DNA of 64,000 nt from a virus. Its lineage: Duplodnaviria; Caudoviricetes. Below, one piece after another: positions 6,795 to 63,984 of this stretch. Where the stretch lies: positions 1 through 64,000 of IMG/VR virus record IMGVR_UViG_3300035498_000745. One strand, written 5' to 3'. Position numbers and translations under genes: made by a program. Under the pieces are notes generated by a model that had not been told where the DNA came from, did not search any database, and was given only the letters and a program-made list of their open reading frames with translations. Position 1 is the first letter of the stretch; every line of letters starts with the position of its first letter.

Positions 6795-7187
6795 CTAATA
6801 ATAATGCTTCTTTTTATTATTTACTATTCTTACCATATCTTCTCTTCTCATCTGAGATCTGCATTCTTGTTCTAAGAATGGATAAGCTTCTGCTATCTTG
6901 AGAAGTACATTGTTCTTATAAAGAGTATAATTTCTTTGTCTATTATATTTATCCATTTTACTTATAGCTTTTATTGTCTGTGTATAACCTGACTCTATTT
7001 TGTGTCTAGCATCATTAACCATTATTCTTCTTATATTATGCTCTCTTAATTCCATAGGAACTTTATCGTTGTATCTAAATGCTATAGAATCTTCATACAA
7101 TTCTCTAGGACTTCTTAGATCTATTTTAATAGAATCAATACACTCTTTAAAGAATTTATTCTTTTCCATATTATTCATATACGTCAC
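6795..7187 (-). CDS. Hypothetical basic protein
   Basis: 130 aa, overlaps primase stop; C-terminal MVRIVN motif. Confidence 0.65.
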   Translation of the reverse strand: MTYMNNMEKNKFFKECIDSIKIDLRSPRELYEDSIAFRYNDKVPMELREHNIRRIMVNDARHKIESGYTQTIKAISKMDKYNRQRNYTLYKNNVLLKIAEAYPFLEQECRSQMRREDMVRIVNNKKKHYY

Positions 7188-8235
7188 TAATCATATTAAC
7201 TGAATCTATTATCCTTTCTTTTGGAACACCATAATCCTTTTCTCCATCCATCATATTTCTATGAATAAATATATTACTTGGAAGCATCTGAATACCTAAA
7301 ATTATAAGTCTATATAATTCATAGTCATTTACATCTTTATCTGGATATATATGAATTTCATAATTCATTATACCAGTCTCATGTAATACAAACTGTAATG
7401 CCTGTTTATATGATTTCCCTCCACTAGCAATATAAATACATTGATCTATACAACAGTTATTCAAATTATAAAATACTGATAGTAGATCAAATGCTCCCTC
7501 AGTAATATGAATCTTTACTTTATTAGGATTCATTGTATCTATCTTTGTAGGTATAATATAGAAATTTTTGTTATCATCTATCTTATCTATAAGATTATAA
7601 TTTATATATCTCTTATCAATAGATTTATCTAAATTTCTAGTAAATAATACTCTTCTAAGAGTAGCAAATGAATTATCATATGAAATAAACCCAATAAAAC
7701 TATTATTGAGTTGATTACATATTCTTTGATCTCTATTAAGTTGTAATTTATTATAATTTATCACATCATATAGATTAATAAATATCTTTAGAGATAAGAT
7801 ATCATTATAACTAAAGTTTGATCCAATACGTTCATTTATATATTTCAGTTTCATCTGACTGAATTTATTATCTGTAATCATAGAGTTCTTTAGCGGATAT
7901 ATATTTATATTTTTTAATGTCTTATATTTAGGAAGTTTCATAATATCAGCATTGTGTTTAGATATTGCTACTAATGTATTACTATTATAGCATCCTAATT
8001 TTCTTAACACATCATCATTAAATATCCCATGTGCAGAACATAACTTACAATGATATTGTGATAAATCTTCAACAGTTCTTGGAACTGATATATACATATG
8101 AGCATGATTTGGATTTTTAGAATCTTGACAAAATGGGCATCTTACAACTACCTCTGATCTACCTGATGCTGGTTTAGCATTTGGGTAAAATGATTTGATC
8201 ATATCTATAAAATTATTTCCTAAAAGATCATACAT
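7171..8235 (-). CDS. DNA primase (Zn finger + TOPRIM)
   Basis: CPFC...H...CKLC Zn finger, ITEGAFD, YPDKD and terminal KDYG motifs. Confidence 0.85.
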   Translation of the reverse strand: MYDLLGNNFIDMIKSFYPNAKPASGRSEVVVRCPFCQDSKNPNHAHMYISVPRTVEDLSQYHCKLCSAHGIFNDDVLRKLGCYNSNTLVAISKHNADIMKLPKYKTLKNINIYPLKNSMITDNKFSQMKLKYINERIGSNFSYNDILSLKIFINLYDVINYNKLQLNRDQRICNQLNNSFIGFISYDNSFATLRRVLFTRNLDKSIDKRYINYNLIDKIDDNKNFYIIPTKIDTMNPNKVKIHITEGAFDLLSVFYNLNNCCIDQCIYIASGGKSYKQALQFVLHETGIMNYEIHIYPDKDVNDYELYRLIILGIQMLPSNIFIHRNMMDGEKDYGVPKERIIDSVNMISDVYE

Positions 8236-8367
8236 ATTTCATCACCTTTCTTAATTGCATGTATTAGAAAAAATAATATCGCACAAAATATTCCAGGTTG
8301 TCATAAAGACAACCTGAATATATTTTGACAGAGAAAGATACCGATTAATAAGTTACACACTTTATAA

Positions 8368-8610
8368 TTATGTTGGTTCATTTGTAATATCAAATCCAAC
8401 ATAAAATTCTATGCCAACAGCATTAGCATATCTAATAAGACTCCTTAATGTAGGAGATGAATCACTACCAGACTCTATATTAGATACGCATGATTCAGAT
8501 AAACCACTTTCTAAGGCAACCTCTTTTTGAGTTAACTTCTTTGCCTTTCTAGCATTAGTTAATTGCATACGGAAAGTTTTATCTTTAATCATAGCTTCTG
8601 TATTATTCAT
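8368..8610 (-). CDS. XRE-family helix-turn-helix regulator
   Basis: ARKAKKLTQKEVALESGLSESCVSNIESG..PTL pattern. Confidence 0.9.
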   Translation of the reverse strand: MNNTEAMIKDKTFRMQLTNARKAKKLTQKEVALESGLSESCVSNIESGSDSSPTLRSLIRYANAVGIEFYVGFDITNEPT

Positions 8611-8621
8611 AACAATCCCCC

Positions 8622-11418
8622 TTATATATAAAGTGAAAACATTAGTAATTCATCATCAAGATTATCACTAATCATAGGTACAAGTTCACCATCCCTTTTA
8701 CCAGGACAATTATTCTCTCTATTCCAATCAATAATTTCAAATTGGGAAGATTTAATAGTACCAATAAGTTCAAATAGTGTATTCAATACTTTTGGGTTCT
8801 GATATTTATTTTGAATCTCGTTATAAAGTTCTGCATTTCTAATCTCTGTAGCATTGTTTTTAGTGATAGCTTTTTTGCTTGATTGACGTACAACCTTAGA
8901 AGAGATTATCCAAGGCAATAATATCATGCCCATTCCTAACAACATATTTTTAGCAGCTATAATAAGCTTGATATAATCAATAGAGCTAGGAATGCTCTTC
9001 CATGTCTCAGGATCACCCAAATCTTTATAAAATACATATCCAACTAATGTACTAGTTGTCTTATTTATAATTTGAGATCCCCCTCTGGTTAATGCTTTTC
9101 TATAATGCTCAATCTCTTCATCAGAAAATGGCCCATACGCATTTTCAATTATTTTTACTGCTTGTTCACTAGATACTTTATTCTGTAGGAACAATGCTTC
9201 ATCCTTCTTGTTTAACCTTGCCTCATACCTCCAAATCTTCACGAAGGTCGTTAATCTTCGCAGTTCTCTTATGAACTTCTCTAGTAATTAGCTAGAAGAG
9301 GAGACTATATCACTATCCTTTGCAGGATATGCTTCCATTTCGACTTACCTGGACTTATTGAGCGTGCCAGACCCACTTGGGTGCTACATATATAGTCGTT
9401 GAACGTTACTAATAATTATACAAATTGCATATTTCTTTAAAAGTCTTCTTGTGTTTAATATTTGATATACAGGTAAAATAATTAGATAATTCTTTATCTG
9501 TAAGAATATCTGTATTTATACCTATTAATTTCAAAATGCTATTTGCTGTTATAATATCTTTACCATAAGTTTGATAGTAGTGACAAATAAAATGTATTTG
9601 ATCATTAGTAAATAAATATTTATTTTTATATGCTGAACTAAAATCATATAAAGACGATATTGATTTCCAACTTAATCCTGCTTTTATATTACATATTATT
9701 CTTCTGAGATCGCAATTATCATAATTTAATATGTTACAAATATCTTTAGTAGAATATCCTAATTCTATTAGCTTACATATTTCATGAACTTGATTATTGG
9801 TAAGCACAGAACTAATTCTATCTTCACCTAAAGATATTAAATTATTAGAAAAAGCATGATGTACATTTTCTTCACGAGTAACCCATTCTAAATTCCATAT
9901 CCAATTATGATATTTTATACCATCTTTATGATTTACATCTAAATACTCACATCCATCAATGTATAAAAACGTCATTAATATTATTCTATGCAATGATGTA
10001 CTAAGTATACTTCCATCGTGTCTTTTTAAATGTACTGACACGTATTCGTTACTATCAAAACTTGTTGCTTTTGGTAAGTAATTTCCAGTTGCCAAATTAT
10101 GAATATAACCATATGAGCTAACTGAATAGTATCTCATAACGTCTGGAAATACCCATTCTGGTAACATCCTTTTACATTCGTATTCTTGTTTGTATTCCGG
10201 AAGAATCATATATAAATCACCTCCATGAATGCAACCAATGTATAATTATTAGTCTTCGCTGCTGATCATGAATTGTTAATAAGTTTTAGGACCTTGTATA
10301 TTAGGCGTATATACAAAGCTTGTATTTCACCATGACTCATCTCTGTACTTTGTTTCTATCTTTCGATTCTCTTATAATAAGAGCTCCAGAGCTTTACCAT
10401 TTTTCAGCATTTAGAAAGCTTTTCCACACAATATTACTATTATATGGCGACCGTATTTTTGATCGTACTCTGAGTTCTGATCTTCATCTCTTTCAGATGA
10501 TGATAATCTATTTAATTGATACTCATATGCAATATCAGTAATTTTATATTGAAGAGATTTTCTATTAGAATAATAGTTGAAATTAATGATATTATTATCA
10601 TATGAATATTTAGGCATGATCTGTAAAATCACGTCATTTACAGAATCCTTAGTATGAGTTGTAGGATTATTACCTCTAATGAAGTTCTTATCCCATAACT
10701 TCTTATCAGGATTCTTAGATTTATTCACTACAGATAATGCAGTTTCATAAATCTTATCATAAATGTATATACCCCTCTCCTCTTCATACTTTACCATACA
10801 CATATCAAATAATTCAAGCATAAAGTCTTGTACTTCTGCTGAACTTCTTATCATATGCATATACATATAGTGTGTAGCAAGTGGTATGTACATATCCATC
10901 ATTAATGAAATTTCATATAATATCTTAGCATGACCGTCTGTAAACTGTAAATTTGGAGTTCTGCCTCCATTATTTGACAATTTCATACTGTAGTTATCTT
11001 CTACAAAATGAACGATCTTTCTAGATATAGAGTTATTCCTAATAATATAACGATTTATATCATTCATGAAAGCATCTTTTGTATAAAGACGTTCATAATC
11101 TATAATGGTCTTCATATTATAGGTTAACATAAGAAGCTCTTTGTCATAATCATAAAACCTTTCAAAATAGTTCATGTACTGACATATATGATCTCGCATC
11201 TTATCTGAATTATAAGAACGCTTACTATTCATAGCAAAGTAGTCTAACTGTCTTGCTTCATCAGACTGATCGACTGAAAAGAACTCTGCTATAGGAAGTA
11301 TAATCTCCCCTTTAATATTTTTGAATATAACATCTTTTGGGTCTACTGGATACTTTTCTGAACCCCATTCATCGACAGGTATAAAATTACTCCTGTCTAT
11401 AATATGACACATAATCAT
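8622..11418 (-). CDS. Probable non-virion RNAP promoter-specificity (sigma-like) subunit, AR9 gp226-type (spliced, ~521 aa)
   Basis: Exons 11418-10462 and 9230-8622 join in frame as NSEYD-RYEARL. Function inferred from size and from lying two genes downstream of the chaperonin, as gp226 does relative to gp228 in AR9. Confidence 0.55.
9231..10461 (-). mobile_element. Group I intron 2 carrying HNH homing endonuclease
   Basis: P1 CGAU|C...GGUCG with U.G, core CAACGACTA...GATATAGTC, shared 3' P9 region, terminal G in GAAGATTTGG. Confidence 0.9.
9409..10209 (-). CDS. HNH homing endonuclease (NUMOD4-like N-terminus, HNH, C-terminal HTH-like repeats)
   Basis: YSVSSYG, HRIILMTF, VNHKDGIKYHNWIWNLEWVTREEN. 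Confidence 0.9.
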   Translation of the reverse strand: MILPEYKQEYECKRMLPEWVFPDVMRYYSVSSYGYIHNLATGNYLPKATSFDSNEYVSVHLKRHDGSILSTSLHRIILMTFLYIDGCEYLDVNHKDGIKYHNWIWNLEWVTREENVHHAFSNNLISLGEDRISSVLTNNQVHEICKLIELGYSTKDICNILNYDNCDLRRIICNIKAGLSWKSISSLYDFSSAYKNKYLFTNDQIHFICHYYQTYGKDIITANSILKLIGINTDILTDKELSNYFTCISNIKHKKTFKEICNLYNY

Positions 11419-11476
11419 GGTTTATAAACACCTCCCACCATATTGCTAATTATATAGTATACAACGAAAATATACA

Positions 11477-12280: not shown

Positions 12281-12347
12281 TCACCTCACAACTACTATTC
12301 TTCTTATTACTTTTTAGGGACTGGAGCCATCCAGTCCCATTGTTGAT

Positions 12348-14090
12348 TTAATCATCAGCACTATACACATTGTGAGCAGGTGTTTGAACGAGATATTGAT
12401 TAGTTGTAAACATAAGCATTAGAACTTTATTAATAGTATCAAGAATAACAACATCCGACTTTATGGATGATTTTACATCGTAATTATACATATTGGTACG
12501 AATATTAAGAGGGCATTCATTATAAAACAGATCTGAAATAAGTCCATTTTGTTCAACAGAACCATCTTCTACATTGTATAGGATGGATATGAGGTTTGTA
12601 TATGCTTCATATAAAATATGTATATAAACATAGCGTCTACTTTTAAAATCAATACATTCTCTAAGCATATCATGTAATACATCAAATGCCATAAAATTAG
12701 CACCATATCCTACACCATATTTAGCAGCAGATCTACAGTTAAATATAGCATCTTCTACAGAAGCTTTAAGATTATTACGATCAGCAAGAGTCATTCCACC
12801 AATTAAGAAGTCTACCATATTGCCCTTAAAGTTGTTTAACCTTCTCTTAGCATGTTGTACTTCTGTTACTCCTGCATTATCATTCTTAGCTTTCTCTACT
12901 TGAGTCTCTAAGTAATTAACCATCATATTGTATGTATCTGAATATACACGATTACCATTCTCATCAACAGTAAACATTTCAGATGGATTAATAACCTTAG
13001 TTTTAAGCTGATCTGAAACTACAAGTTCTGCACTTCCACAGAAATCTAATATTGTTTCAGGTGTAGGAGCCAATCCAGCTTCTATATCAGCCTTTTGAAT
13101 ATCAGGATTAATATACTTCTTAATCCATGGAGCACCACACATCTTAGCAATATCCTCATACATATATTCCTGATGAATATCACTTACAATAAGAAGTGGT
13201 ACGTTAGGTACACTATTCATAAGCCTAATTACAGTCTCAAAGTAAGAACTTGTATCTGGAGATATAGATTTGCAGAATATTACTGTTGGTACTGGTTCAT
13301 ATACACTGCCCTGACGATAGCACCTAATAATATTATTCTCAATAATAGCATCTAACCACCCAAGCATCTCTGGTGTATCAATGGGATCATTAAAGCAATA
13401 AATCTTAGGGTTATTAATATTTGCTGTATTATTAGTATGATTATTAACCATGCATGTATTTGCAAATCCAGTATCAATAGTCATACCATCATACTTCTTA
13501 ACCAGATTATTTACTTCATTAGAAATTCCTACGTCAATATATACATCCATACCAAACTCTTCATAGATAGCTTTAATAGTTCCAGCTATCTCTTCATTAT
13601 TATTGGTAGATATAAGAGCTATATCATAAATATCATTAATGCTGCATTCCCAACCATTCTTTAAGATTCTAGATTTTGCTTCCTCTACAATCTCTCCAAA
13701 ATCATGTAATATGTCTGATGGTGCATCATTGGATATGATTGTATTGTCACAAAGAGCATCAAATACAGTCTTACAAAGAATAATTGCTGATGTTGTACCA
13801 TCACCAACCTCCTTTACGATATACCCAGTAAGATCACTAAGCAAATTCTGAACTGATCGTTCAATTGGATTAAGAAATCTTATATTATTTATAATCGTAT
13901 GACCATCTTTAGTATGCTCTACAGATATATTATAACTATTCTTATCCATATCTCTAACAAATGCAGTGGTTGAACCTTTTGGACCAAATGACTTTTTTAA
14001 TGCATCTGCTATAATTGTGAGTGTTTCTCTCTGAACTTCCCGCACTTTCTGTTCTGGAACAATATTAGAGTAAATCTTCATCTGTTGCAT
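12348..14090 (-). CDS. groEL: Phage chaperonin, GroEL-like
   Basis: SFGPKG, TKDG, EVGDGTTS and VEDA motifs; 580 aa; no GroES-like gene seen in window. Confidence 0.93.
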   Translation of the reverse strand: MQQMKIYSNIVPEQKVREVQRETLTIIADALKKSFGPKGSTTAFVRDMDKNSYNISVEHTKDGHTIINNIRFLNPIERSVQNLLSDLTGYIVKEVGDGTTSAIILCKTVFDALCDNTIISNDAPSDILHDFGEIVEEAKSRILKNGWECSINDIYDIALISTNNNEEIAGTIKAIYEEFGMDVYIDVGISNEVNNLVKKYDGMTIDTGFANTCMVNNHTNNTANINNPKIYCFNDPIDTPEMLGWLDAIIENNIIRCYRQGSVYEPVPTVIFCKSISPDTSSYFETVIRLMNSVPNVPLLIVSDIHQEYMYEDIAKMCGAPWIKKYINPDIQKADIEAGLAPTPETILDFCGSAELVVSDQLKTKVINPSEMFTVDENGNRVYSDTYNMMVNYLETQVEKAKNDNAGVTEVQHAKRRLNNFKGNMVDFLIGGMTLADRNNLKASVEDAIFNCRSAAKYGVGYGANFMAFDVLHDMLRECIDFKSRRYVYIHILYEAYTNLISILYNVEDGSVEQNGLISDLFYNECPLNIRTNMYNYDVKSSIKSDVVILDTINKVLMLMFTTNQYLVQTPAHNVYSADD

Positions 14091-14739: not shown

Positions 14740-14754
14740 GTAACATCACCTTAT

Positions 14755-24545: not shown

Positions 24546-25340
24546 CTATATACACATTATATTTTTTTGACCACCATTTATAACTATAGAATATTCAGAA
24601 CCTTCATTGTTATACTCTATAGAATTATAATAATGTAGAGAATACTTATAAAAATTATCATAAGCCCATCTGTTAAATGACTCTATATCTATCCAGTACC
24701 AATTGTTAATGTCATATGAATTACGTATATATATCTTACTTCCATTTAAAGATATTGATATTCGTATTTTCTTTTTATCACTGGCAATGCTAAGTAAATC
24801 ATCCTCAATCTTAGAGAAAGTTTTAAAGTCATATACGATCTCTCTTATCACTATGAGATAATGCATAAATATGGATCTTCTTTTATATCCACGATTCACA
24901 GGATCATAGACAGATAAACGATTATTATATGATAATGCTATAAATTCTGCCATATCTATACCAAAATTATTCAGAATATCAATCTGATTATTGGCAAGAT
25001 ATATAACTGTTTCTACTTCAACTGCTGATTCTATATTTAATCTATATGAACGATTAGAAGCAATCAACACGTAATCAACTACTTGATCTTGATGATATAA
25101 TTCATGAATGATTGTCTCTATTATAGTACAATAATACTCATATTCAGAATTAACAAATCTGGATATTACTTGAGGATAGATCTCGACAATATTAGGACTG
25201 AACGATGATCCACCTATTTCAGATTCCGCTAAGCACAACCAGTTTATTTTTAGTACTGCTATATTGCATGTATTAATTTTGCCATTATAATAATTAAACA
25301 CCCTCCTTATAAAATTTTCAACATATTCTTTATTTATCAT
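24546..25340 (-). CDS. HExxH metallopeptidase-like protein
   Basis: TIIHELYH followed by a downstream E. Confidence 0.6.
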   Translation of the reverse strand: MINKEYVENFIRRVFNYYNGKINTCNIAVLKINWLCLAESEIGGSSFSPNIVEIYPQVISRFVNSEYEYYCTIIETIIHELYHQDQVVDYVLIASNRSYRLNIESAVEVETVIYLANNQIDILNNFGIDMAEFIALSYNNRLSVYDPVNRGYKRRSIFMHYLIVIREIVYDFKTFSKIEDDLLSIASDKKKIRISISLNGSKIYIRNSYDINNWYWIDIESFNRWAYDNFYKYSLHYYNSIEYNNEGSEYSIVINGGQKNIMCI

Positions 25341-26211: not shown

Positions 26212-26961
26212 TTATCTTTCAGTTGCATTTACTTTGCTAAAGAAAGAACTATTATTTGAATTATTGTAATTATTTCTATTACCATTTTTAGGTAATGAAT
26301 TAAATGAAACATAATTAGTTCCATTTTCTGGTCTGCCTAAATATGATAATAATCCTTGAGCTGCAAGATACATATTGAAATTAGATATAAAGTAATTAAA
26401 CGATAAGAATTTATTCACATCAATAAAAAAATTTACTGCATCACTATTCATATAAAATCTAACTCCAGTTATATAATTACCATTATCATACTTTACCACC
26501 GCAGGTTCTATCTCAATATATTTACCAAATGATATATCTATTTTTTCACTATATGTTTTAGTTGGTACCATTGCTCCATTACTACTTTTGGCAAATATTG
26601 ATTTGGCTCCGGTAAACCATTTTGATGCTTTATTCAATTTAAATTGTAAAAAATATATGTCATTCTGTGTAATCTGAATTTGATCTTTGAATCCATTATT
26701 ATCTTTCCTTACTGATTCTATCTGTAAGAAATAATCAAAATCTCTGTTTATGCTTACAGCAAATCCATTCTTAGCAGAATATCCAAATTCTTTATGATAA
26801 TTTTCTTTACCTCTATTTTCTGTATATCTATTAAGTCTTACTACAAACTTAACTACCCAATCTTTGTTCAACCAAAATACTGTATCTGAAATACGGTCAT
26901 AATCATTATGAACTATAGTAACCATCTCAGCCATCATAACACCCTCTATCAATACTATCAT
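26212..26961 (-). CDS. Hypothetical protein (likely start near 26937)
   Basis: 249 aa ORF; N-terminal MVTIV motif. Confidence 0.65.
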   Translation of the reverse strand: MIVLIEGVMMAEMVTIVHNDYDRISDTVFWLNKDWVVKFVVRLNRYTENRGKENYHKEFGYSAKNGFAVSINRDFDYFLQIESVRKDNNGFKDQIQITQNDIYFLQFKLNKASKWFTGAKSIFAKSSNGAMVPTKTYSEKIDISFGKYIEIEPAVVKYDNGNYITGVRFYMNSDAVNFFIDVNKFLSFNYFISNFNMYLAAQGLLSYLGRPENGTNYVSFNSLPKNGNRNNYNNSNNSSFFSKVNATER

Positions 26962-28380: not shown

Positions 28381-29901
28381 TCATTTTTTAAACACTGGCA
28401 TACACATTACTTTCTTAACTTTGTACTTATCCCTTATAACAGCAGCTCTTTCTTGTATATCTATATCTGGCATTGCTACATCTCTACATGATTTAGCATA
28501 TGTAGAGAATACAGGTTTCTTAGCAGAATAGTATCTTTTAGTAAAATAGAATCCTTGATCTACTAAATCAAAATAGAAAGTATCATTAGCTCTACATCTA
28601 CCAAGAGTTTGTCTTGCTAATACAGAAGACTTAAATGGTTCAGCTAAATTTATAGTACAACACAAGTCTGCTATATCTTGAGCAGCACCGCAAGATTTAG
28701 TTGTAGATAATATGATCTTCTTATACAAATTTAACTCTTTAGTTTCTTTTTCAGATAAACTAGTATACACCCCCACGCTATTAACTAAAAATGGGAAATC
28801 TTGAATTATGTGATCTCTAACTCTCATAATGCCTGCGTTGGTGCCTATATAAATAAGAATCTTGCCATTCATCGGTAAAACCATTTCTATTAATATAGTT
28901 ACCATATCTAAAAACATAGGTCTATTTACTATATAATCAACATATCTATTTCTATCAAATCCATAAGCATTCTTACATTTATTTATATCCATAGGTGATG
29001 GGTGTGAATTAAAATGGAAAGCTACATAATTAACATGTGGATCAGTATCTTCATTAAATAAGACTATAGATGGAATATTTTTAAAATATAATTGATAGAT
29101 ACTATTCTCATCTTCATTAGATCTTTCTGGTGTAGCGGTAAGATATATAGTCTTCTTTGTATTTGAATGGTAATCAATTTTTGACATGTTATCGAAATAC
29201 AAATGAGCCTCATCAAATACTTTTAATGAGCATTTTAAATACTTAAAAAACTCATCTACTTTATCCCATCCATTCTTATCTCCATAAGATTTTATAGTAG
29301 AATGAGAAACTAAGAATATTTGATAATCTAATGGATTTCTACATTGTAATTTGGATATAGATCCTGCTCCAGAAACAGTAAATATCTGATTATCATTCAA
29401 TGGAGTATACTCTAATATTCTAGCTCTCCATTGATCTAACCAATTTAATGAGCTAGTAATAATTATAGCTCTAGCTCCAGTAAAACATATTGCTCCTACA
29501 GTGACAAATGTTTTACCAGATCCAGTTGATGAATTTACTGACAATTGGGATTTAGTTCTTGTATATATATATTTACCATCACCAATTAAGAACTTTAATA
29601 TCTCTACTTGTCTATCATCTTTAGTAAGATACTTTATAGGTATAGGTTCAGTATCCACATATGGATCACATTGTTTATCAACAATAGCATTGCAGCAAAA
29701 CATATTCTCCAAATAACCAATATCTAATCCTCTTGGAACTATAAGTTTTCTTTTTTCATCATCATATTCAATAAATCGTATAAATGATGTATGTCTTAAT
29801 TTATCATATACTGAAAAACAATATTCTAACCTTGGGCAATCTCCCATGTCATAATTATTTATTTCTATTCTAGAATGTTTTAATACTACTTTATTTTGCA
29901 T
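28381..29901 (-). CDS. Superfamily 2 DNA helicase (UvsW-like)
   Basis: TGSGKT, FDEAH, LTATP, QTLGRCR. Confidence 0.9.
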   Translation of the reverse strand: MQNKVVLKHSRIEINNYDMGDCPRLEYCFSVYDKLRHTSFIRFIEYDDEKRKLIVPRGLDIGYLENMFCCNAIVDKQCDPYVDTEPIPIKYLTKDDRQVEILKFLIGDGKYIYTRTKSQLSVNSSTGSGKTFVTVGAICFTGARAIIITSSLNWLDQWRARILEYTPLNDNQIFTVSGAGSISKLQCRNPLDYQIFLVSHSTIKSYGDKNGWDKVDEFFKYLKCSLKVFDEAHLYFDNMSKIDYHSNTKKTIYLTATPERSNEDENSIYQLYFKNIPSIVLFNEDTDPHVNYVAFHFNSHPSPMDINKCKNAYGFDRNRYVDYIVNRPMFLDMVTILIEMVLPMNGKILIYIGTNAGIMRVRDHIIQDFPFLVNSVGVYTSLSEKETKELNLYKKIILSTTKSCGAAQDIADLCCTINLAEPFKSSVLARQTLGRCRANDTFYFDLVDQGFYFTKRYYSAKKPVFSTYAKSCRDVAMPDIDIQERAAVIRDKYKVKKVMCMPVFKK

Positions 29902-38793: not shown

Positions 38794-38924
38794 AACAAAA
38801 CATATCGGGGCTAGGCTATCAAGCCTAGTCCCAGGATGTTCTTCAACACTATTCTTTTTTATCCATCTGAGAATTATGAATTATAAAAAGGATAATATCT
38901 ACCTTAAGATATAAACTTCGTTCA

Positions 38925-39485: not shown

Positions 39486-39632
39486 ATAAACCTCCTTATA
39501 ATTTTTTATTTAGTGTCGGTTAAGCTTATAGCTTACTACAAAGTTTTACGATTTTTATTTTTATATAGATCAGTATAAAACGCCTAGTCTGGACATTGAT
39601 TTAAAATATTTAGTAATGAAAGGAGGATAAAT

Positions 39633-42600
39633 ATGGCTTATGGTAATGTAATAACACCATCATATGTAGTTAATTATCATCAAGGTCAAATGGTACAGCA
39701 AAGAGCAGCTCCCAAACAAAGACCTCAGCCACAACCTATAAGGACTGTATATAGTCAAAAGACAACTAAGAACAAAAGCTTCTTAGATATGCATCATTAT
39801 CTTAAATCCATTGGTGTAAATAATAATGAATTTATGCTTGCCTTATTAGATCCTGACTTAGATGGAATTGACCCTTATGATCCAAATTTAAATGCCTATT
39901 ACAAACAGAAAATATTAAGAGAATGCATATGCAATTATTGGTATTTCCTCAGAGAGATAGTCAAATTACCATCATCAGGTGCTAAACCTATGCGTTTTAA
40001 ACTAGATCGTGGTAATTTAGCTTATAATTTTTGTGCATCTCTTAATATGAATATATTTCTTGAAGAGCCTCGGCTAATAAAATAACCCATCTTATATAGA
40101 AATATATAGGATGAATCTCTTTTAATTTGCTGGGAAGTGCTAAAGCCATTTAGCCTATTAATAGGAGACGAAAGTCAGAAATAAGTAAATGGATGAGCTA
40201 TGCTGAGAAAAAGCTAATTTATAATTGGTGCTAAGGCTTGATAACAATGTGCAATCAGCGTCTAAGATTTATTAATTATACTATATAATTTTAATCTTGA
40301 TAAAGATTATCTTCAACAAGATCTTTATATTGGAGATAGAGTATATTCAAAAGAAACATGTGTTTGGTTAGATAGATCTACAAATGGTAAACTTGCAACA
40401 AAAACATTTAATGATGAATTAGATTATGTAGATAAATCTGGGAATTTAAAGAAAGTGACTATGGTTAGTATAATTAATAAATAAAGTTCAACGACTATCC
40501 CTCGGATGCGGCTCTTAAAATAATGCATCAATAGGAGTAGGGCTCAAGTGAGCGGGTGAGATCCCCTTAAATCGAAATGGAGAGTTACCTTAAATGGTAA
40601 AGATATAGTCTCGACACTTGGAGAAAGACCAAGGAAGTTCATAAGAGAACTGCATAGATTAACGACCTATGTGAAGACACCGAGAGAGGTAAGACAACAT
40701 CTGTTGCTATAAGGCATTTATATTTATATAATTTTGGTACTACTAATTCTAAAATGGCTTTCCTCCATAAGAATATGGATGGTTCTAAGGATAACTTAGC
40801 AACAATGAAAACTATTAGAGATTTATTACCTCAATATTTGGTTCTTAAAGAAAGGATTACACCAGATGGCAAAGTAGATAAAGGTAAAGATAATACTACA
40901 GAAATTGTAAATCCATTTAACAATAACCATATTAAAGCATTTGCTTCTGCTACAAATAAAGCAAAAGCAGCATCATTATTACGTGGTAAAGATTTGCCCT
41001 ATACTATGGTGACATAGTGTAGAATGGCTATTAACGCTGGGAAGTGCTAAGGCTCTCTTGCCTATTATATAGGAGACGAAAGTCAGAAATAAATAGAGAG
41101 ATGGGCTATGCTGAAATAAAAGCCAATTATTTATAATTGGTGCTAAGGTCTATTAACAATGTGTAATCAGCATCTAATCTTAATATATTTAACCAAATAC
41201 AAGTAATTAAATATTTTTTATAATAAAGGAGGATATTTAATATGGTGGTAGAAGTAGGGGGAATTTATAAATCTAAAAAATGTGGAGAATATGAAATTTT
41301 ATGTAGAAACGATCAAGAATCATATAACAAATTTAGAACATGCTATGATATAAAATTCTTAAAGACTAAATATGTTACTACAGTAAGAGTCGATCAAATA
41401 AATACTGGCAGTATTAAGGATCCATATTTTCCATCAGTATGTGGAATTGGTTATTTGGGTGAGCCTAAAAATGAGTATAGAGATCCATATATTTATAATA
41501 GATGGAATAATATGATAAATAACTGTTATAATGATAAATATCGTAATTATAGTTTACATGGAGCTTTAGGAATTACAGTATGCAAAAGATGGCATTGTTA
41601 TGCTAATTTTGCAGAAGATATAGAATCATTACCTGGGTATGATGATATGATAAATAATCCTAAAAAAAGATATAGACTAGTAATAGTACAACAAAATACT
41701 CCTGAAAATCAAAAAATATATTCTCCAGAAACATGTATTCTTATTAATCAATAATGCTTGGTTAAAAATATTTGATTAGTTCAACGACTATCCCCATATG
41801 GGCTGTGAAATTCAGCAACAGGAGTAGGGCTCAAGTGAGTAGGTGAGAACCCTTTAAATCAAAAAATAGCCTACCTCTTATATAAGAGGTAAAGATATAG
41901 TCTCAACTCTTAGAGAAATACTAAGGAAGTTCATAAGAGAACTGCGGGAATTAACGACTCTCGTGAAGACAATTGAAATCATTGACTTTGATGTGGTTTG
42001 ATGAGTATGGATTCCTACCATATAATGATATTATCTACATGAATGGTGCTCCTGCATATAAAACAGCATCTTCAATAGCTAAAGCAAATGGAGCTCCTTA
42101 TGGTATAACTATAACAACGACTCCGGGCTTCCTCAGCACAGATGAAGGTAAGGAGGCATATGCCATGAAAGAGAGTGCTACTAAATTCTCTGAAACATGG
42201 TATGATAAATCATATACTGAATTAATGGATATTATTAACGCTAATACTAAATCAGATTATGTATATATTAGATATACATATCAGCAGCTTGGATGTTCAG
42301 AAGAATGGTTTAGAGATGTATGTAGATTACTTAAGAACTCATGGCCTGATATTAGACGTGAGATCTTATTAGAGTGGGCTACAGGTGTTGAAAATTCTCC
42401 ATTTAAAGAAGAAGACCTAGATACTATAGCAGGCTTAATAAGACAACCTATATCAGAGGTATACTTGTTAGGCAAATACAGATTTGAAACTTATCTTCAA
42501 GCAGATACTAGAACTTATCCTGCAATTATAGGTGTCGATGTTGCAGGTGGTTATAAGCAGGATAGTTCTACCATAACAGTTGTAGATTCACAAACAACTA

Positions 42601-43577
42601 AAACTTTAGGTTGTATGAATTGTAACTATATTTCAACTTTGGATTTAGCACGATGCATTGAATTCATTGTAAAGAATTGGATGCCAAATGCTGTAGTTTC
42701 TGTTGAACGCAATGGTGGATTTGGTTCTACAGTAATATCTAAGTTGAAGAAGATGGGATTAACAAAGAATCTGTATTATGAAATTAAAGAGAAGACAGTA
42801 GAAGAAAGACAGGATGGAGTTCATGCTTATAAGCAAAAGATAAGAGTGAAAGAATATGGTCTTAATTCTACAATGCAAGTTAGAAAACTTCTTATTGATA
42901 TCTTAATAGAACGAGTGGAAAATCATAAAGATAAGATTATTTCACCAATCATATATAATGAGTTATTAGGAATGGAAATTAAGAGAAACGGTAAAGTAGA
43001 ACATTCAGCGTCTACACATGATGATCAGATATTCTCTATGCTTATGGCTCTTTATGTATGGTATGAAGGAACCAATCTTGCAGAACGTTATGGAATTCGT
43101 AAAGCTTCAATTAAAACAGATGATGATATTGATGAACAATACGATTATTATAATGATGATACTGTAGAGATTGTAGATTCTTTCAATGTAGAATCTGAAT
43201 TAAATACAGAAATTGAAAGAGATCTTGATGCTGCTATAAGAGCAGGTGGAACACCAATGCAAGAATTCTTAGATAAACGTAGGGAAGAAGAGAAAGCTCA
43301 ATATGAAGCTCTTATTAATACTCCTCTTGGAGAAAGAGCTTATAGACAGAAATATAGTATTCCTCCTAACGTACCGATCTCTAATTATATTGGGGATCAA
43401 AGTTCATTTAATGTACCAGACTCAATATTCTTAGGATTCTATGATAATACTCCTGGTAATTTAAGTGATTATTACGATGAAGATAAACCACTTGCTAGAG
43501 TGGGTGCTGTTCCTGAAGCTCAACGAGGACAGTTAGAAGGAGAAGATTATAGATATTACAATCATTTTAATTTCTAA
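39633..43577 (+). CDS. terL: Terminase large subunit (three exons, ~782 aa)
   Basis: Exons 39633-40074, 40683-40987, 41976-43577 give Walker A PRQRGKT, LRG-KSLTLMWFDE Walker B, TTTPG, GVDVAGG..QDSS and HDD nuclease motifs. Confidence 0.92.
40075..40682 (+). mobile_element. Group I intron 4 (endonuclease remnant; apparent C.A 5' splice pair)
   Basis: Same core and 3' end (GAAGACACCG) as sibling introns; these boundaries restore PRQRGKT. Confidence 0.85.
40296..40484 (+). pseudogene. C-terminal remnant of homing endonuclease
   Basis: LDKDYLQQDLYIGDRVYSKETC aligns with LDKDYKQQGIPYNKKIYSLKTC of 36844-37842; no start codon or RBS. Confidence 0.8.
40988..41975 (+). mobile_element. Group I intron 5 carrying endonuclease-like ORF
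   Basis: P1 GGU|AAA..UUUGCC with U.G, conserved core, terminal GAAGACAATTG. Confidence 0.9.
41242..41754 (+). CDS. Intron-encoded endonuclease-family protein, possibly degenerate
   Basis: Homologous to 36844-37842 (WNNMINNCY, GITVCKRW, YSPETC) but lacks LDKD and the C-terminal domain. Confidence 0.7.
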   Translation: MVVEVGGIYKSKKCGEYEILCRNDQESYNKFRTCYDIKFLKTKYVTTVRVDQINTGSIKDPYFPSVCGIGYLGEPKNEYRDPYIYNRWNNMINNCYNDKYRNYSLHGALGITVCKRWHCYANFAEDIESLPGYDDMINNPKKRYRLVIVQQNTPENQKIYSPETCILINQ

Positions 43578-53116: not shown

Positions 53117-53758
53117 TTAGAAAACGTTTAAATACGGTATATAAATAGACACTAAAAATTTAGGTTTTTTAACTTTAAAATTGGCTATAAATGTATGTGG
53201 CATTTGCCCATCACATACTCTAAGATAAATCTTATCATTCTTATTAAGTGGTAATAATCCACTAAATAAAGTCATATAATATCTGTTTTTAAATCTATAA
53301 TGAATAGTTCCATCTGTCTTTCTCATAGAATATAATTGTAATAAATCCGATGTTACTTCCTCTTCTACTTTAGAAAACATATTCATCTTATGCTCTATTT
53401 CTTCTATATAGTTTAATCTAGAATATATATTCTTATTTAGCATAGCATCTATATTAATATTCAATTCTACAGCTCCTACAGTAGTATGAAATACATTATT
53501 TGGATTCATTGTATCAACTACAAATTTAGATTCTGTAGTTATAGATTTTATAAATTTAGATAACTCTCTTTGATCAAATACTAGCGGTACTAAACAAACA
53601 TTAGACATCTTTGTTGGGTCTAATTTTGTTTTTATTGCGTATATGTCCATGTTATCTAATCCTATGATAGTGTTATCAATAAGAGCAAAGTGCCTATTTT
53701 TAAGACACTTTGCTGCTTCATTTATATAAACCAAATCGCTAATTGTTAGTTCTATCAT
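53117..53758 (-). CDS. Hypothetical protein translationally coupled to the DNA polymerase N-subunit
   Basis: 213 aa, overlaps polymerase stop by 20 nt. Confidence 0.65.
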   Translation of the reverse strand: MIELTISDLVYINEAAKCLKNRHFALIDNTIIGLDNMDIYAIKTKLDPTKMSNVCLVPLVFDQRELSKFIKSITTESKFVVDTMNPNNVFHTTVGAVELNINIDAMLNKNIYSRLNYIEEIEHKMNMFSKVEEEVTSDLLQLYSMRKTDGTIHYRFKNRYYMTLFSGLLPLNKNDKIYLRVCDGQMPHTFIANFKVKKPKFLVSIYIPYLNVF

Positions 53759-56278
53759 TCCAAATCTCCTTTAAATTAATCTTAGGCATAATATCTACTC
53801 TTACACACATATTTCTATTAACACTATTATCTACAATAGAACACATTACTCTATTTTGAGTATTAATAACAGTATGATACATAAATCTATTACCTGTAAG
53901 AGTATCAGCATATCTAAATCTAGATAATGGATTTTCTATTGTTGAGAAATATTTGATTATATCATCATACATTTCTTCATAATTGGCAAGATGTAGATAT
54001 CTATGGCAGAAATTCAATCTGTCACCACAAATAAGATCTTCCATAAACCAAACTGAACGATCAAAATATGGATTATTAAATCTATCTTCCTTATTATCTA
54101 ATTTTTCTGGTAATAAAACTTTACCTCTCATTGTATTTGGAGCTATATTATTCTCATTAATAATAGAAGGATAAAGAGCTTTATACATTGTCTTCACATA
54201 GGTCGTTAATCTATGCAGTTCTCTTATGAACTTCCTTAGTATTTCTCTAAGAGTTGAGACTATATCATCATCCTTAGCTTTACCTATTAGGATGCTCTTC
54301 CACTTTGATTTAAAGGGTTCTCACCTACCTACTTAGGCCCTACTCCTGTTGCTGAATTTCACAGCCCATAATGGGGATAGTCGTTGAACTTTATTCTAAA
54401 ATATATAATTAGATGAAATATTAGTATAGTATTTTCTTGTTATTTTATAATAATCATATATAGAGTCTACAACAGATTTATCTAAATCAATTATAATTTC
54501 ATCATGCATCAAATTTAAAGTTGTCACTATAACATTGTTTTTATATCTTTTAGCTATAAGAATCGCCTCCTTATAACTAATATTTCATCTTTTTTAGAAT
54601 CTTAGACGCTGATTGCACATTGTACAAATCCTTAGGACCAACTATTTCTAATTGGCTTTTATTTCACCTTAGATCATCTCTCTACTTGTTTCTGATTTTC
54701 ATCTCCATATAGGCAAGAGAGCTTTAGCACTTCCCAGCTATTCAAAAGAGTTACATCCTCAGTATTACTACTAAAAACGGACTATAATTAATCAAAATCG
54801 TCAAGATTATCACATATATTTATAGCTTTACCATTTACTTTATTCTTAGGTTTATCGCTTACTAATAATGGATCAGCTACATATGCTCCAGCAAATCCTT
54901 CTTTTTCATTAGATTTATTTACATTATTACCCATAATATAACCCATATTATAGAAATCCATAATTCCTCGATTTACTAAATAAGTTGTCTGCCTATGGAT
55001 TTTAGCATATCTAGTTCCTACATTTAGCGATTTACTGAATACAAAATCTATATCACCAACTATATGCTCAATACATAACTGAACTATTGTATCCATAACG
55101 TTATAAAATACAAATGTTTTATAATCTAAATATGGAAGTTCAGTAATATTTCTAGTAATATGAGAATAATCTAATTTTCTTACTTCAGCAATTGCATCAC
55201 CAACAAAATCAAGTTTATAGCTAGTAATTTTACCTTTCTTCTCACCTTTACGTCTAGAAGCAAATGTAATTAACTGATCCATATAAACTGTATATGATGA
55301 TACTAAAGCATAATCACCTCTAGCTTCAAACATTTGAGCTCTCTTATCTATGAAATAGTAACAATCTTTTACTTTAAAATCAGGATCACATACTATTTCA
55401 TTTGGATCATATCCTAATCTAGCAATACGAGCAATTATATATGGTAAGTCGAACGCTATATTCCATGCTAATGCAAAATCCGGTCTAGTTTTATTTATAT
55501 ACTTAAACATATCACGAATAAGCATTATCTCTTCATCATAAAATACAATACTATATTCAAATTCATCTAATCCATATAACTTTTCTTTCTTCCATCCTCC
55601 TACATTTTCTTTAACAAATTCTTTTAGATCTTTTGTTATATCTGGTATTCTGGAGAATTCTTCTATTAATGGATTATTATAATTTTTCAATAGAAGAGTA
55701 TATATCATTTTATTATATTCATCTACTAAAGTTATAGCATTTATCGGGCACTCTCCTGGCTCTGGAAAATCTCCTATCATATCTTTAGTATCAACCTCAA
55801 TATCGAAATATAATTTTGTTGGAGAATATGATTCATTCCTATAAGTTTTATTAAATTCTATCCTATAGAAATCTTCTATATTCATATCAGCATTAAATAT
55901 CTTAGGAATAGTATAAAGTTTTTCATTCTCTCTATAATTCCCATTACTAATATTATCATAAAAGAAATCCAGATTATCAGTTTTTTCAGCTATACTTTTT
56001 AATACATCTCTATATTTGCAAGTTACTGGATGCACACTATCTTTATCTATGAATAACATATTATGAGTTACCTGAACATCATCATTTGCAATATAGTAAG
56101 TATACGTCGGTTCTTCTATATGCTCAAATTTTTTCTCTCCAGTATCTAAATCTCTAAATACAATATCTATAGAATCTTTTCCATATTTGCCGGTTTCTGG
56201 ATCTTTTTTGCTTTTATGATATATTGTATTTATAATAGTTATATTACTGCCTGGTTCATATCCTTTAACCCTAAACAT
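53739..56278 (-). CDS. Family B DNA polymerase, N-terminal subunit: 3'-5' exonuclease plus motif A (spliced, ~644 aa)
   Basis: Exons 56278-54791 and 54185-53739 join as DDFD-YKALYPS; ExoI FDIEVD, ExoII AWNIAFDLPY, SYKLD, ExoIII YNVMD. Confidence 0.9.
54186..54790 (-). mobile_element. Group I intron 6 inserted in polymerase motif A
   Basis: P1 GAU|UA-AUUA-UAGUC with U.G, conserved core, terminal GAAGACAATG. Confidence 0.92.
54396..54557 (-). pseudogene. 53-codon ORF remnant in intron 6 loop
   Basis: AAGGAGG RBS followed by ATA instead of ATG; same loop position as the endonuclease ORFs of sibling introns. Confidence 0.5.
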
Positions 56279-56364
56279 AAACAACCTCCATTTCCATATA
56301 AATTTATTAATATTCTTCAATTAATTAGATGTGTTTTAAACTTTATATTTAGAAACATTTGATT

Positions 56365-57605: not shown

Positions 57606-57645
57606 AATAAATTTAATAGGCTACCATTTCTGGTAGCCTATATAA

Positions 57646-58626: not shown

Positions 58627-58655
58627 ATATAGTCCTCCATTATAATTTTAAGTTA

Positions 58656-59366: not shown

Positions 59367-59407
59367 AATATTTACCTCCTTAATTGTTTTTACTTGACTG
59401 TTTCATT

Positions 59408-62104: not shown

Positions 62105-62171
62105 ATAATCACCTCTTAATTAGATGTGTATACTCCTATATTATCATAAAATAGAGGGTGTGAGAACTAAC

Positions 62172-62456
62172 TCACACCCCAAATTTGTTAAGAGTTTTTC
62201 TATCGATTAATTGCTTAGGGAATTTCTCACTCCAATCTATCAAATAACACTTATTACATACTAAGCATTTGATAAATCTAACATTGACTTTCTGTAGTTC
62301 TCTATATATTTTAGGAGATGTTGCTCCATTAGAAAATAGTCTAGAATAATCTATCAACGTGTTTCTATCTGTTAAAAAGAATAACATATTATTTCCACAC
62401 TCTTTACATGTGCATGGATTATTAAGCTTACACATTTCTATATTATTATTCAACAT
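62172..62456 (-). CDS. Small Zn-ribbon protein
   Basis: CKECG and CLVC. Confidence 0.65.
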   Translation of the reverse strand: MLNNNIEMCKLNNPCTCKECGNNMLFFLTDRNTLIDYSRLFSNGATSPKIYRELQKVNVRFIKCLVCNKCYLIDWSEKFPKQLIDRKTLNKFGV

Positions 62457-63156: not shown

Positions 63157-63474
63157 TTAATTCACCCCCATAGGATTTTTTATATCAGCAGGCTTTTCTC
63201 TTTGAGCTAACTCATAATGATGAGTATTCTCATAAAGAAGTTTCCTTAAAGGAGTTAAAGGAATAAATCTTTCTGGTGTTGCAATCATTTCAAATACCCT
63301 CTTACAATTACAACACATTCCTTCACATTTATAATCCATAGTTTTAGAATCAGTAACATACCCATCCATATCAGTTAAGAATAGATTAAACTCTGATTCT
63401 GCTACTACAAATTGACTATGCCCACATGCAGGGCATGATCCTGCTGGTAATAATCTTACCATTACATTCTTCAT
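63157..63474 (-). CDS. Small Zn-ribbon protein
   Basis: CPACG and CCNC. Confidence 0.65.
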   Translation of the reverse strand: MKNVMVRLLPAGSCPACGHSQFVVAESEFNLFLTDMDGYVTDSKTMDYKCEGMCCNCKRVFEMIATPERFIPLTPLRKLLYENTHHYELAQREKPADIKNPMGVN

Positions 63475-63504
63475 ATCTTTTACCTCATTTAGCCAAAAAA
63501 ATAA

Positions 63505-63741
63505 TTACTTTGTTGGCTCTGAATATTTTATCTTTCTTATATCTCCCTTTGTTACTACAATAGCATCTGTACTCATTTTTGAAGGATCTGAAATTATAGA
63601 GGTGTAGGGTTTAGCCACACCTCTAACAATAACGGATCCAGGAGTATAATTACTACCATAAACGCTCTGCATACGTTTATTTTCTGTATCGGAATAGATA
63701 AAATACCTGTTGTACATAGATGGTACGTTTGTTGTAGCCAT
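63505..63741 (-). CDS. Small hypothetical protein
   Basis: 78 aa, AGGAGG RBS. Confidence 0.65.
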   Translation of the reverse strand: MATTNVPSMYNRYFIYSDTENKRMQSVYGSNYTPGSVIVRGVAKPYTSIISDPSKMSTDAIVVTKGDIRKIKYSEPTK

Positions 63742-63762
63742 AATAATTCCTCCTAAACTATA

Positions 63763-63984
63763 TTACTCGTTTAGATAGAACATAAGACCATCTCCAAAAA
63801 GATCGATTCCGTTAATATACTCTTCAGTTTCTACAACGTACTTTGGCATATCTAATAAAGATTTTGCTAATGATACGCACTCTCTTAATACATCATTTGT
63901 CTTCCTTGTAGTTGACAAATTATGATCATCTATGATTTTACACATAACTAATCGAGAATCAATAGCCTTATAAGTATCTATCAA
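63763..63984 (-). CDS. Hypothetical protein, start uncertain near the window edge
   Basis: 73 aa ORF containing MCKIID. Confidence 0.5.
   Translation of the reverse strand: MIDTYKAIDSRLVMCKIIDDHNLSTTRKTNDVLRECVSLAKSLLDMPKYVVETEEYINGIDLFGDGLMFYLNE

Follow-up and report, generated by a model that had tools for sequence, protein, structure and literature searches.

Results and discussion

A short peptide shared by proteins of a phage contig

The stretch analyzed here, referred to as the window, comprises the first 64 kb of an 89,798-bp IMG/VR viral contig (IMGVR_UViG_3300035498_000745, Caudoviricetes; the complete contig is called G000) with a GC content of 31% and a CheckV completeness of 37%. 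Proteins encoded in the window, among them RNA polymerase subunits, both parts of a split family B DNA polymerase, a helicase, and an HNH endonuclease, carry a short peptide with the core M-[C/V]-x-I-[V/I], which we call the tag; in its strict form of six residues, the core is followed by D or N. The tags, their bearers, and the sequences at the same sites in related genomes are compiled in Table 1.

The beta'-like RNA polymerase gene of G000 encodes a protein with 26-27% identity to those of Listeria phage LPJP1 and of the Bacillus phages vB_BpuM-BpSp, PBS1, and AR9. It has many close relatives in uncultivated phages with contigs of ~250 kb; the beta' search yielded 1193 homologues among 8000 candidates scored, the best 120 of which were 59-100% identical. 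Five related records were taken whole for comparison, namely G001 (238.8 kb), G002 (265.7 kb), G003 (259.0 kb), G005 (313.3 kb), and G006 (248.1 kb); the last belongs to another clade, and the C-terminal half of its non-virion beta' subunit (beta'C) is only 38% identical. Open reading frames (ORFs) were obtained with a simple greedy caller, so that start codons are approximate, and the tag bearers were named via Pfam or PHROGs. Shuffled controls were made within proteins, with 3000 shuffles for the window and the unseen remainder of the contig, 300 for whole proteomes, and 200 for the regular expressions describing the dialects (see below). Matches within 25 aa of either protein end were counted as near-end.

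Table 1. Tags and tag-like sequences, their bearers, and the corresponding sequences in related genomes. Positions refer to the window unless preceded by G000
Tag	Position	Strand	Bearer and location of the tag	Related genomes
MVKIVD	30021-30038	-	Non-virion RNA polymerase beta' C-half, gene 30003-32192; 6 aa before C-terminus	
MCHIID	11395-11412	-	phrog_25005 RNA polymerase subunit (initially annotated as sigma-like), gene 10411-11418; residues 3-8	
MCKIVD	36375-36392	+	DNA polymerase B C-part, ORF 35148-36635; insertion after motif C	VMCEIVE (G001), EMVTYVE (G003), KMMDILE (G005)
MVEIIK	36324-36341	+	Same insertion of the DNA polymerase C-part; second, weaker tag-like copy	
MCSIVD	53829-53846	-	DNA polymerase B N-part, last exon ORF 53739-54197; C-terminal tail	2-3 tandem copies: IMCTIVP...EMCIIVD...EMCY (G003), PMIELVD...EMIVIQE (G005), LFHKID...LFHKIT (G006)
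MCVRVD	53793-53810	-	DNA polymerase N-part tail; second, degenerate copy	
MCKIID	63928-63945	-	600-aa phrog_2943 'polymerase', gene 63763-65565 (passes the window end); 55 aa before C-terminus	VMCKIID (G001), IEVCRIV (G002), EMCRIVG (G003), EMIRLLD (G005); PLFHKIE near the C-terminus (G006)
MCRIV-stop	37825-37842	+	HNH endonuclease (phrog_2081, E 1e-46), ORF 36844-37842, between the DNA polymerase pieces; C-terminus	
MVRIVN	6819-6836	-	130-aa protein of unknown family, 6795-7187; 7 aa before C-terminus	DMVKIV-stop (G003), DMVKKVSK-stop (G001), VAAIVVK-stop (G002), PMMRIVKP-stop (G005)
MVTIVH	26908-26925	-	249-aa protein of unknown family, 26212-26961; near N-terminus	EMCTLVH (G003), LAITLAH (G002), KLIHQID (G006)
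MVSIIN	40461-40478	+	72-aa stop-to-stop ORF fragment, 40266-40484; end	
MCMPV	28393-28407	-	SF2 DNA helicase, 28381-29901; degenerate tag, 3 aa before C-terminus	By dialect: VMCMQVY, VMCTTVY, KVVVCNRV, RMLYLPV, KLFHKIE-stop
MCI-stop	24549-24557	-	264-aa protein of unknown family, 24546-25340; truncated tag, C-terminus	LMCKKV-stop, RMCSIIDN-stop, NRLYRLIDK-stop
MVRLL	63448-63462	-	CPxCG zinc-ribbon protein, gene 63157-63474; tag-like N-terminus ahead of the zinc ribbon	EMVRLVP, EMVNIVP, LAIKRID
MCKLN	62421-62435	-	Second small zinc-ribbon protein, 62172-62456; tag-like N-terminus	KEMCRIVHP (G003)
VMCKEVKK	G000 69380-71635 (gene)		RNA polymerase beta piece; C-terminal	Also in G001; two copies in G002
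			DnaB-like helicase; C-terminal	G003
			NAD-dependent DNA ligase; internal, near residue 116, before the adenylation domain	
			DNA methyltransferase; C-terminal	G003
			Xis-like helix-turn-helix protein; C-terminal	
GMVxxIIKP	G000 65567-66196 (gene)		A2, acidic, 209 aa; internal	GDLFHKISMP (G006), co-varying

Enrichment of the tag and its position in the proteins

The initial annotation of the window listed ten peptides as strict matches, together with two looser copies, and all of them were recovered with position and strand. Seven of the ten fit the full pattern ending in D or N, whereas MVTIVH, MVEIIK, and MCRIV-stop contain only the five-residue core. A six-frame search revealed four more core matches in non-gene frames (37451, 49246, 62742, and 63642). 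In the 65 called proteins of the window (19,301 aa), the core is present 9 times compared with a shuffle mean of 0.52 (maximum 5; 0 of 3000 shuffles reach 9), and the strict form 6 times compared with 0.082 (maximum 2; 0 of 3000 reach 6). The initial observation is confirmed, and more strongly than had been claimed. The copy at 40461 sits in the 72-aa ORF fragment, which was left out of the called protein set. The unseen part of the contig (64-89.8 kb, 25.8 kb) contains two core matches compared with 0.30 in shuffles (117 of 3000 reach 2) and no strict match, and both core matches close their proteins (MCKIIE-stop and MCKIVKK followed by two stops).

An excess over shuffled sequences, which had been proposed as a check of the motif, was observed in the window and also in the whole proteomes of G000 (11 core matches vs. 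0.80), G001 (14 vs. 1.88), and G003 (18 vs. 2.01). In the proteomes of G005 (2 vs. 2.11) and G002 (1 vs. 2.09), there was no excess of the core. In an unbiased scan of all exact patterns specifying four of five residues, MC.IV or MCKI ranked near the top in G000, G001, and G003, with 12 occurrences compared with 0.13 expected in G003; the other top patterns were tandem repeats within single proteins and the zinc-ribbon signature CP.CG. Our own expectation-maximization motif finder, applied to terminal segments, drifted to uninformative profiles, and regular expressions anchored in orthology were used instead.

The tag had been described as mostly terminal, and this applies to 7 of 11 matches in G000, 10 of 14 in G001, and 15 of 18 in G003, which are near-end, compared with 16-17% of all residues; some tags, however, are internal, namely those of the DNA polymerase C-part, the ligase, and the 209-aa A2 protein. 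Of 47 C-terminal tags, 38 have no more than 9 aa between the end of the motif and the C-terminus, and the 20 aa upstream of C-terminal tags are richer in K/R (0.17 vs. 0.11). The consensus of 38 aligned instances of type A, that is, the form found in the window, is [KR][KR][EVI]-M-[CV]-[KTR]-I-[VI]-[DKP]-[KN], in which basic residues flank the core.

The tag is a peptide-level signal

The consensus DNA of the motif, ATGTGTAAAATTGTAGAT, has TAA and TAG in the other two frames of the same strand. Because of these stop codons, a DNA element inside genes would be frame-locked too, and frame-locking alone therefore proves nothing. At the C, V, and I positions, the choice among synonymous codons mirrors that in the whole genome, except for one Ile position, where ATA is used in 7 of 7 cases. 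At position 2, beta'C orthologues swap Cys (TGY) and Val (GTN), which needs at least two base changes. The AR9 promoters have the consensus sequences AAATATATATTAT-N6-G (early) and AACA-N6-TA/G (late) (PMC5312081), and the motif DNA bears no likeness to either of them. Sigma-70-like sites were not enriched in the region of 28-38 kb (54 vs. 63.4). A reading of the motif as a promoter, terminator, or intron boundary was rejected on the grounds of codon usage, the C/V swaps, the absence of likeness to AR9 promoters, and the lack of a sigma-70 excess. The tag is a signal at the peptide level, not a DNA signal.

It is extremely unlikely that the motif is a chance pattern or a DNA- or RNA-level element that merely reads as this peptide. 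The uninformative frame-locking and the many copies near gene ends would agree with such a view, but the shuffles never reach the observed counts, codon usage is unconstrained, Cys and Val are swapped among orthologues, there is no match to AR9 promoters, and the variants of the tag described below differ at the protein level yet hold their position.

In the sequences upstream of ORFs in G000 and G003, a strong Shine-Dalgarno sequence, AAAGGAGG, is the dominant over-represented 9-mer; the same count gave no conserved promoter word.

Lineage-specific dialects of the tag change together

The sites that read M-[C/V]-x-I-V in G000, G001, and G003 have different sequences in G002, G005, and G006, and each of these genomes has a form of its own, which we call a dialect. 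Examples are VLAIKRVD, VIAIKRV, LVAAKVVE, LVAKVVKK, VLACRVVRK, and MIVIKRVKK in G002, KMYDLVNK, KMYDVVS, PMMRIVKP, and TMIELV-stop in G005, and PLFYKIE-stop, RLFQKIS-stop, LFHKID...LFHKIT, PLFHKIEH, and MKRLFHKIRED in G006. Two regular expressions were written from orthologous sites, so that part of their score is built in: near protein ends, expression B, [AV][IAC][KR][RVI][VI], has 15 matches in G002 compared with 0.7 in shuffles and 0 in each of four other genomes, and expression D, L[FMI].KI, has 11 matches in G006 compared with 1.5 (maximum 5) and no excess in five other genomes. For expression B, 8 of the 18 hits in G002 lie outside the sequences used to write it. Expression C for G005, M[YIM].[LVI][VIL], is loose and weakly enriched near ends (17 vs. 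6.6, shuffle maximum 16).

Dialect hits share one alignment column in three or more genomes, and represent two or more dialects, in 12 families. Internal sites are among these, such as those of the ligase (VMCTVV, VMCSIV, and RLFEKI) and the DNA polymerase C-part (VMCKIV and KMMDIL). The concerted shift is also seen in a set of 24 IMG/VR loci, where the tails of beta'C and of the helicase and the ends of two proteins of unknown family change in step; two of the loci (L024 and L025) exhibit a fifth dialect (QKVFSKI-stop, NTFNAFGYIL-stop, and PAFSYIY). In 120 homologues of the phrog_25005 subunit, the tag is located at residues ~3-9, ahead of a conserved HIPVDEWDTE; 47 of the 120 are of type A, and the others read MIVIKRV, KMYDLVNK, QLYRLID, or MIIMATRVKK.

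The beta'C protein was identified by a match of the G003 orthologue to phrog_3015 and by its AR9 homologue, which is annotated as the non-virion RNA polymerase beta' C-terminal subunit. Its tagged tail is an extension, and the AR9 and LPJP1 homologues stop before it. The tag is present as M[CV].[IVL][VI] in 65 of 119 long homologues, and the remainder show other dialects. In a FastTree phylogeny of the 119 homologues from which the last 60 residues had been removed, dialect B forms one clade (support 97), 17 of the 18 dialect-C rows fall into one clade, and all labels require 16 changes compared with 49.6 after shuffling (0/200).

The homing endonucleases, to which the tag had been ascribed at the outset, do bear it: HNH endonucleases carry the local dialect in each genome, and in G001, G002, and G003 HNH proteins end in it. 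The mobile endonucleases thus adapt to the dialect of the resident phage. Lack of conservation in orthologues had been named beforehand as an observation that would speak against the motif; the tag is kept at orthologous sites in the related genomes. Likewise, the features expected of a short linear motif with one co-evolving receptor were found, that is, a site that is kept, flanks that vary, and concerted change in unrelated proteins. Because unrelated proteins hold a short peptide in place yet rewrite it together, one shared, co-evolving reader of the tag is indicated. The initial idea of one hub protein binding the motif is partly supported, in that concerted change is what a single common receptor would predict; this receptor may be a clamp-like factor or an import or recruitment receptor.

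Proteins with and without the tag

As annotated initially, MVEII and MCKIVD both lie in the insertion just after motif C of the DNA polymerase. Besides the bearers named via Pfam or PHROGs, about six proteins without a known family are tagged, and the tag marks about ten proteins of this kind as probably acting on DNA. A 100-aa zinc-ribbon protein of G006 begins with MKRLFHKIRED and may correspond to the 62172-62456 protein. Several small CP.CG zinc-ribbon proteins bear an N-terminal tag, and in G001, G002, G003, and G005 this signature belongs to the exact patterns with the strongest over-representation (6-8 copies vs. 0.02 expected). A 304-aa protein (G000 74155-75069), encoded next to a tubulin/FtsZ-family gene, has a tag-like MVKIL ~20 residues from its N-terminus. 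The 72-aa fragment 40266-40484 is possibly an endonuclease remnant.

The reported absence of the tag from virion and lysis proteins was confirmed with the core pattern for the proteins that could be named. PHROGs assigns 8 G000 proteins to these functions (the major head protein, the sheath, and three more structural proteins of the head or tail, together with protease, terminase, and endolysin), and 0 of the 8 contain the core. In G000, the tubulin-like protein and the GroEL-like chaperonin showed no terminal tag. The 1437-1472-aa beta-like protein and two beta'N-like proteins of the related genomes were also without a terminal tag, and the virion RNA polymerase-like proteins examined are without the tag.

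A common partner and its possible nature

From the covariation we infer that the tag is, very probably, a short linear docking peptide for one common, phage-encoded partner. It is carried by N- or C-terminal tails, or by surface insertions, of proteins with which the phage handles DNA and RNA. These include three non-virion RNA polymerase subunits, the two halves of the split DNA polymerase, the DnaB-like and SF2 helicases, the 600-aa 'polymerase', and the ligase, and also HNH homing endonucleases, the DNA methyltransferase, and small helix-turn-helix and zinc-ribbon proteins. The whole set of tags switches its dialect together between lineages, very probably because all copies in one genome are read by the common partner.

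By analogy, this partner may be a DNA-associated hub encoded by the phage, a sliding-clamp-like tool-belt comparable to T4 gp45, and we favor this possibility tentatively. Such a hub would concentrate the tagged enzymes on phage DNA and couple non-virion RNA polymerase transcription to replication. The putative clients would correspond to the classic clientele of clamps (polymerase, ligase, helicases, nucleases, and methyltransferase), extended by transcription. Features expected of a clamp tool-belt network were found: the tag is common to otherwise unrelated replication, repair, and transcription proteins, and it is located at termini or in extended regions, with linkers before the tag that vary, as judged from positions and alignments. 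The layout of two residues, a spacer, and two hydrophobic residues is also the same as that of Q-phi-x-L-F with its two subsites, although the residues differ.

The gene of the favored hub candidate, A3, is located outside the window (G000 66271-66999, -). A2 and A3 are acidic, conserved proteins of unknown function encoded between the 600-aa polymerase gene and the ligase gene, with A3 between A2 and the ligase gene. A2 was rejected as the hub, as it turned out to be a tag bearer itself. In a count of dialect-discriminating columns, it ranks 33 of 78. A3 has 242 aa and an isoelectric point of 4.7, and its family of acidic proteins of ~200-240 aa comprises 326 representative clusters at E ≤ 1e-3. 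Alignment of its N-terminal and C-terminal halves with hhalign gave a probability of 40-46% and an E-value of 2e-4 over 73 columns, which suggests an internal duplication that would suit a two-domain clamp protomer. The Atlas structure model of A3 is of low confidence.

Several observations weigh against a clamp-like hub. The tag fits none of the known consensus sequences (Q-phi-x-L-F, Q-phi-x-L-x-L, the PIP box, or the hydrophobic-acidic terminus of T4), as it contains neither Q nor L-F. Pfam models for gp45, DnaN, PCNA, DNA_PPF, the clamp-loader delta2 domain, gp32, and SSB gave nothing above threshold in five to seven genomes. Specifically, PF09116, PF02768, and PF00705 had no match at E ≤ 1 in five genomes and PF02916 had none in seven, and divergent proteins can escape such models; for the clamp loader (PF13177), nothing exceeded the threshold, and there was one 13-bit sub-threshold hit in G005. 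Two topoisomerase II subunits, SbcC, and a RecA-like protein are without a terminal tag in G000. A3 showed no likeness to Pfam, PHROG, NCBIfam, PDB-chain, or T4 gp45 entries and no match in cultured phages, and it ranks only 71 of 78 families in the column count, which is crude and not decisive. Apart from the probable duplication, no result spoke for A3 as the hub. Finally, the tags on separate subunits of complexes, on helix-turn-helix and zinc-ribbon proteins of 70-105 aa, and on endonucleases fit an address label at least as well.

According to that main alternative, which we consider possible but rather unlikely, the tag serves as a signal for targeting or import, by which every polypeptide, translated separately, gains entry to a replication and transcription compartment or condensate built by the phage, and the receptor would be located at the compartment, not on DNA. 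Separate tagging of the subunits of one complex, as in the non-virion RNA polymerase (beta'C, beta, and the phrog_25005 subunit) and in the two DNA polymerase halves, is in line with such a signal, as are the basic residues around the core and the fact that endonucleases, a methyltransferase, and small helix-turn-helix and zinc-ribbon proteins, which need access to DNA but not processivity, bear the local dialect. The lack of the tag on head, tail, and lysis proteins also fits. In addition, the replication module contains a tubulin/FtsZ-family gene (G000 75091-76266, -; L084:15091-16266; PF00091, E 5e-11, above the cut-off), and tubulins position the nucleus of chimalliviruses (PMC13282480). 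However, topoisomerase II, SbcC, and the RecA-like protein must enter such a compartment too, yet have no terminal tag. The phiKZ shell protein chimallin (gp054) had no match at E ≤ 1 in five genomes in a single-sequence search, which is weak, and no candidate for a shell or a receptor emerged. In its most far-reaching version, which seems doubtful, the tag would be the first linear address label in a phage, a dialect-bearing import or recruitment signal that brings proteins of replication, repair, and non-virion transcription to a replication compartment unrelated to the chimallin nucleus. Homing endonucleases would have to adopt the dialect to reach DNA, and the dialects would bar co-infecting relatives' enzymes and mobile elements.

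The partner could instead be supplied by the host (its beta sliding clamp, for instance, or a different hub), with dialects tracking hosts, but we regard this as improbable. The layout of the tag resembles that of the pentapeptide clamp-binding motif, and no phage clamp was recognized with the Pfam models mentioned above. Moreover, B. subtilis MutL uses the atypical QEMIVP (bioRxiv 10.64898/2026.05.27.728225), and phage Mu recruits the host clamp for late transcription (PMC12867686). On the other hand, the clamp pocket, like its motif, is described as strongly conserved among bacteria (bioRxiv 10.64898/2026.05.27.728225). The tags lack Q and L-F, and their gradual drift between close relatives better suits a co-evolving phage partner. 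It is still less probable that the tag is a chaperone or protease signal, which would deliver proteins to the GroEL-like chaperonin that the phage encodes (12348-14090, -; phrog_5725, E 3e-62) or, as a terminal degron, would time their turnover. Generic chaperone-binding sites are similar to a hydrophobic core with basic flanks, and degrons are typically terminal, but the sharp lineage-specific dialects and the strong preference for M-C argue for a specific pocket; furthermore, helix-turn-helix proteins of 70 aa would hardly need a chaperonin, and beta'C of AR9 and LPJP1 is without the tail. A model without any separate receptor, in which the tags, as short beta-strands, pair among themselves and thereby join the DNA-acting proteins in one assembly, is very improbable. 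The core is rich in beta-branched residues, the tag-like strand of A2 appears, from its sequence pattern alone, to be in a hairpin, and concerted change would also be expected for mutual compatibility, but five residues are a very short interface and we know of no precedent for such pairing.

Relation to known systems

The tag combines features that are known from several systems. PIP-box and APIM sequences are terminal short motifs of PCNA networks on polymerases, ligase, nucleases, and DNA methyltransferase, and APIM is a five-residue hydrophobic core with basic ends; their consensus sequences differ from the tag, and no PCNA-like protein was recognized here (PF00705, five genomes). Encapsulin cargo-loading peptides and the encapsulation peptides of bacterial microcompartments are short terminal address labels that load metabolic enzymes into shells, whereas the cargo here would be DNA and RNA enzymes and no shell is known. 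The likeness to the T4 gp45 system lies in a short hydrophobic peptide that is common to the DNA polymerase and transcription proteins and is terminal, on divergent flexible linkers. The differences are the sequence, the placement on a phage multisubunit RNA polymerase and on many more proteins, also at N-termini and in internal loops, and that no clamp or clamp loader was recognized with Pfam models. To our knowledge, lineage-specific dialects are not a described feature of the T4 system. In T4, the DNA polymerase gp43, the late sigma factor gp55, and the co-activator gp33 share a clamp-binding C-terminus with variable linkers, and these termini are interchangeable (PMC2988020); the gp45 system links late transcription to replication (PMC2988020; PMC7892883).

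The bacterial beta-clamp motifs are penta- or hexapeptides found in numerous replication and repair proteins, frequently within extended regions (bioRxiv 10.64898/2026.05.27.728225; PMC6511837). Q-phi-x-L-F and Q-phi-x-L-x-L share with the tag the two-plus-two layout for two subsites. The beta-clamp motif is nearly universal; in contrast, the tag diverges among related phages, is without Q and L-F, and has basic flanks. The import system of the chimallivirus nucleus (Imp1/PicA) resembles the situation described here in that DNA- and RNA-acting proteins are handled selectively, in giant phages with RNA polymerases of their own. However, it is reported in a 2026 review to recognize surface patches, not terminal signals, and AR9 is placed outside that family (PMC13282480). 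The tag is a linear, mostly terminal peptide and not such a surface patch, and a chimallin homologue was not detected in the five genomes with the weak single-sequence search.

In line with the initial annotation, no description of the motif was found in the searches made, which covered open-access text; MVKIVD, MCRIVD, and MCKIID were absent from the papers listed, in which MCKIV alone matched, apparently as parts of surnames. Nor was an open-access paper found that joins phage nucleus, import, and short linear motif. In kind, the tag is a hub-docking short linear motif; what is unusual are its sharp lineage dialects, its placement on a phage multisubunit RNA polymerase, and its adoption by homing endonucleases.

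Sequence alone defines a network that connects replication, repair, and DNA modification with homing endonucleases and with the late RNA polymerase of the phage, and it is found in a very large uncultivated clade of ~250-kb phages. The dialects provide ready specificity controls for a receptor hunt, as the true partner must prefer the tag of its own genome. If the partner is a DNA-bound hub, coupling of transcription to replication in the style of T4 would have evolved once more, here on a phage-encoded multisubunit polymerase; with a compartment receptor, phage cell biology would gain its first terminal targeting signal.

Split genes and neighboring genes

The family B DNA polymerase is encoded by two distant genes, each of which is interrupted (53739-56320, -, and 35148-38793, +). 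The N-part consists of 54788-56320 and 53739-54197, separated by a gap of ~590 nt, and is one ORF of 637-643 aa in G001, G003, and G005. The C-part consists of 35148-36635 and 38269-38793, with the HNH ORF 36844-37842 between them. Rfam revealed no group I intron, either in the whole window at the gathering score or in 36300-41300 at E ≤ 1. The copy of the tag at 40461 had been attributed to an 'intron 4', which lies in the terminase region and not in the polymerase. The gene of the terminase large subunit also looks split (39633-43577, +); 41973-43577 matches phrog_2, and the protein is a single ORF of 784 aa in G003. Between the terminase pieces, the ORF 41242-41754 is 37% identical to part of the HNH endonuclease 36844-37842.

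The beta'-N-like RNA polymerase gene, on which the tag was not seen, is present as two ORFs in G000 (window 156-1433 and 1865-2215, +), with a weak PF00623 match at 1973-2089, and as a single ORF of 547-549 aa in G003 and G005. The GroEL-like gene (12348-14090) sits between the gene of the phrog_25005 subunit and the head genes. The DNA polymerase C-part (38269-38793, +) ends with ...NDSVNVSNIIQL-stop in G000, G001, G002, G003, and G005, and the diverged end in G006 is ...NTINYTNIISL-stop. Unlike the tag, this conserved end does not exhibit a sharp change of dialect, and it may be a separate contact site.

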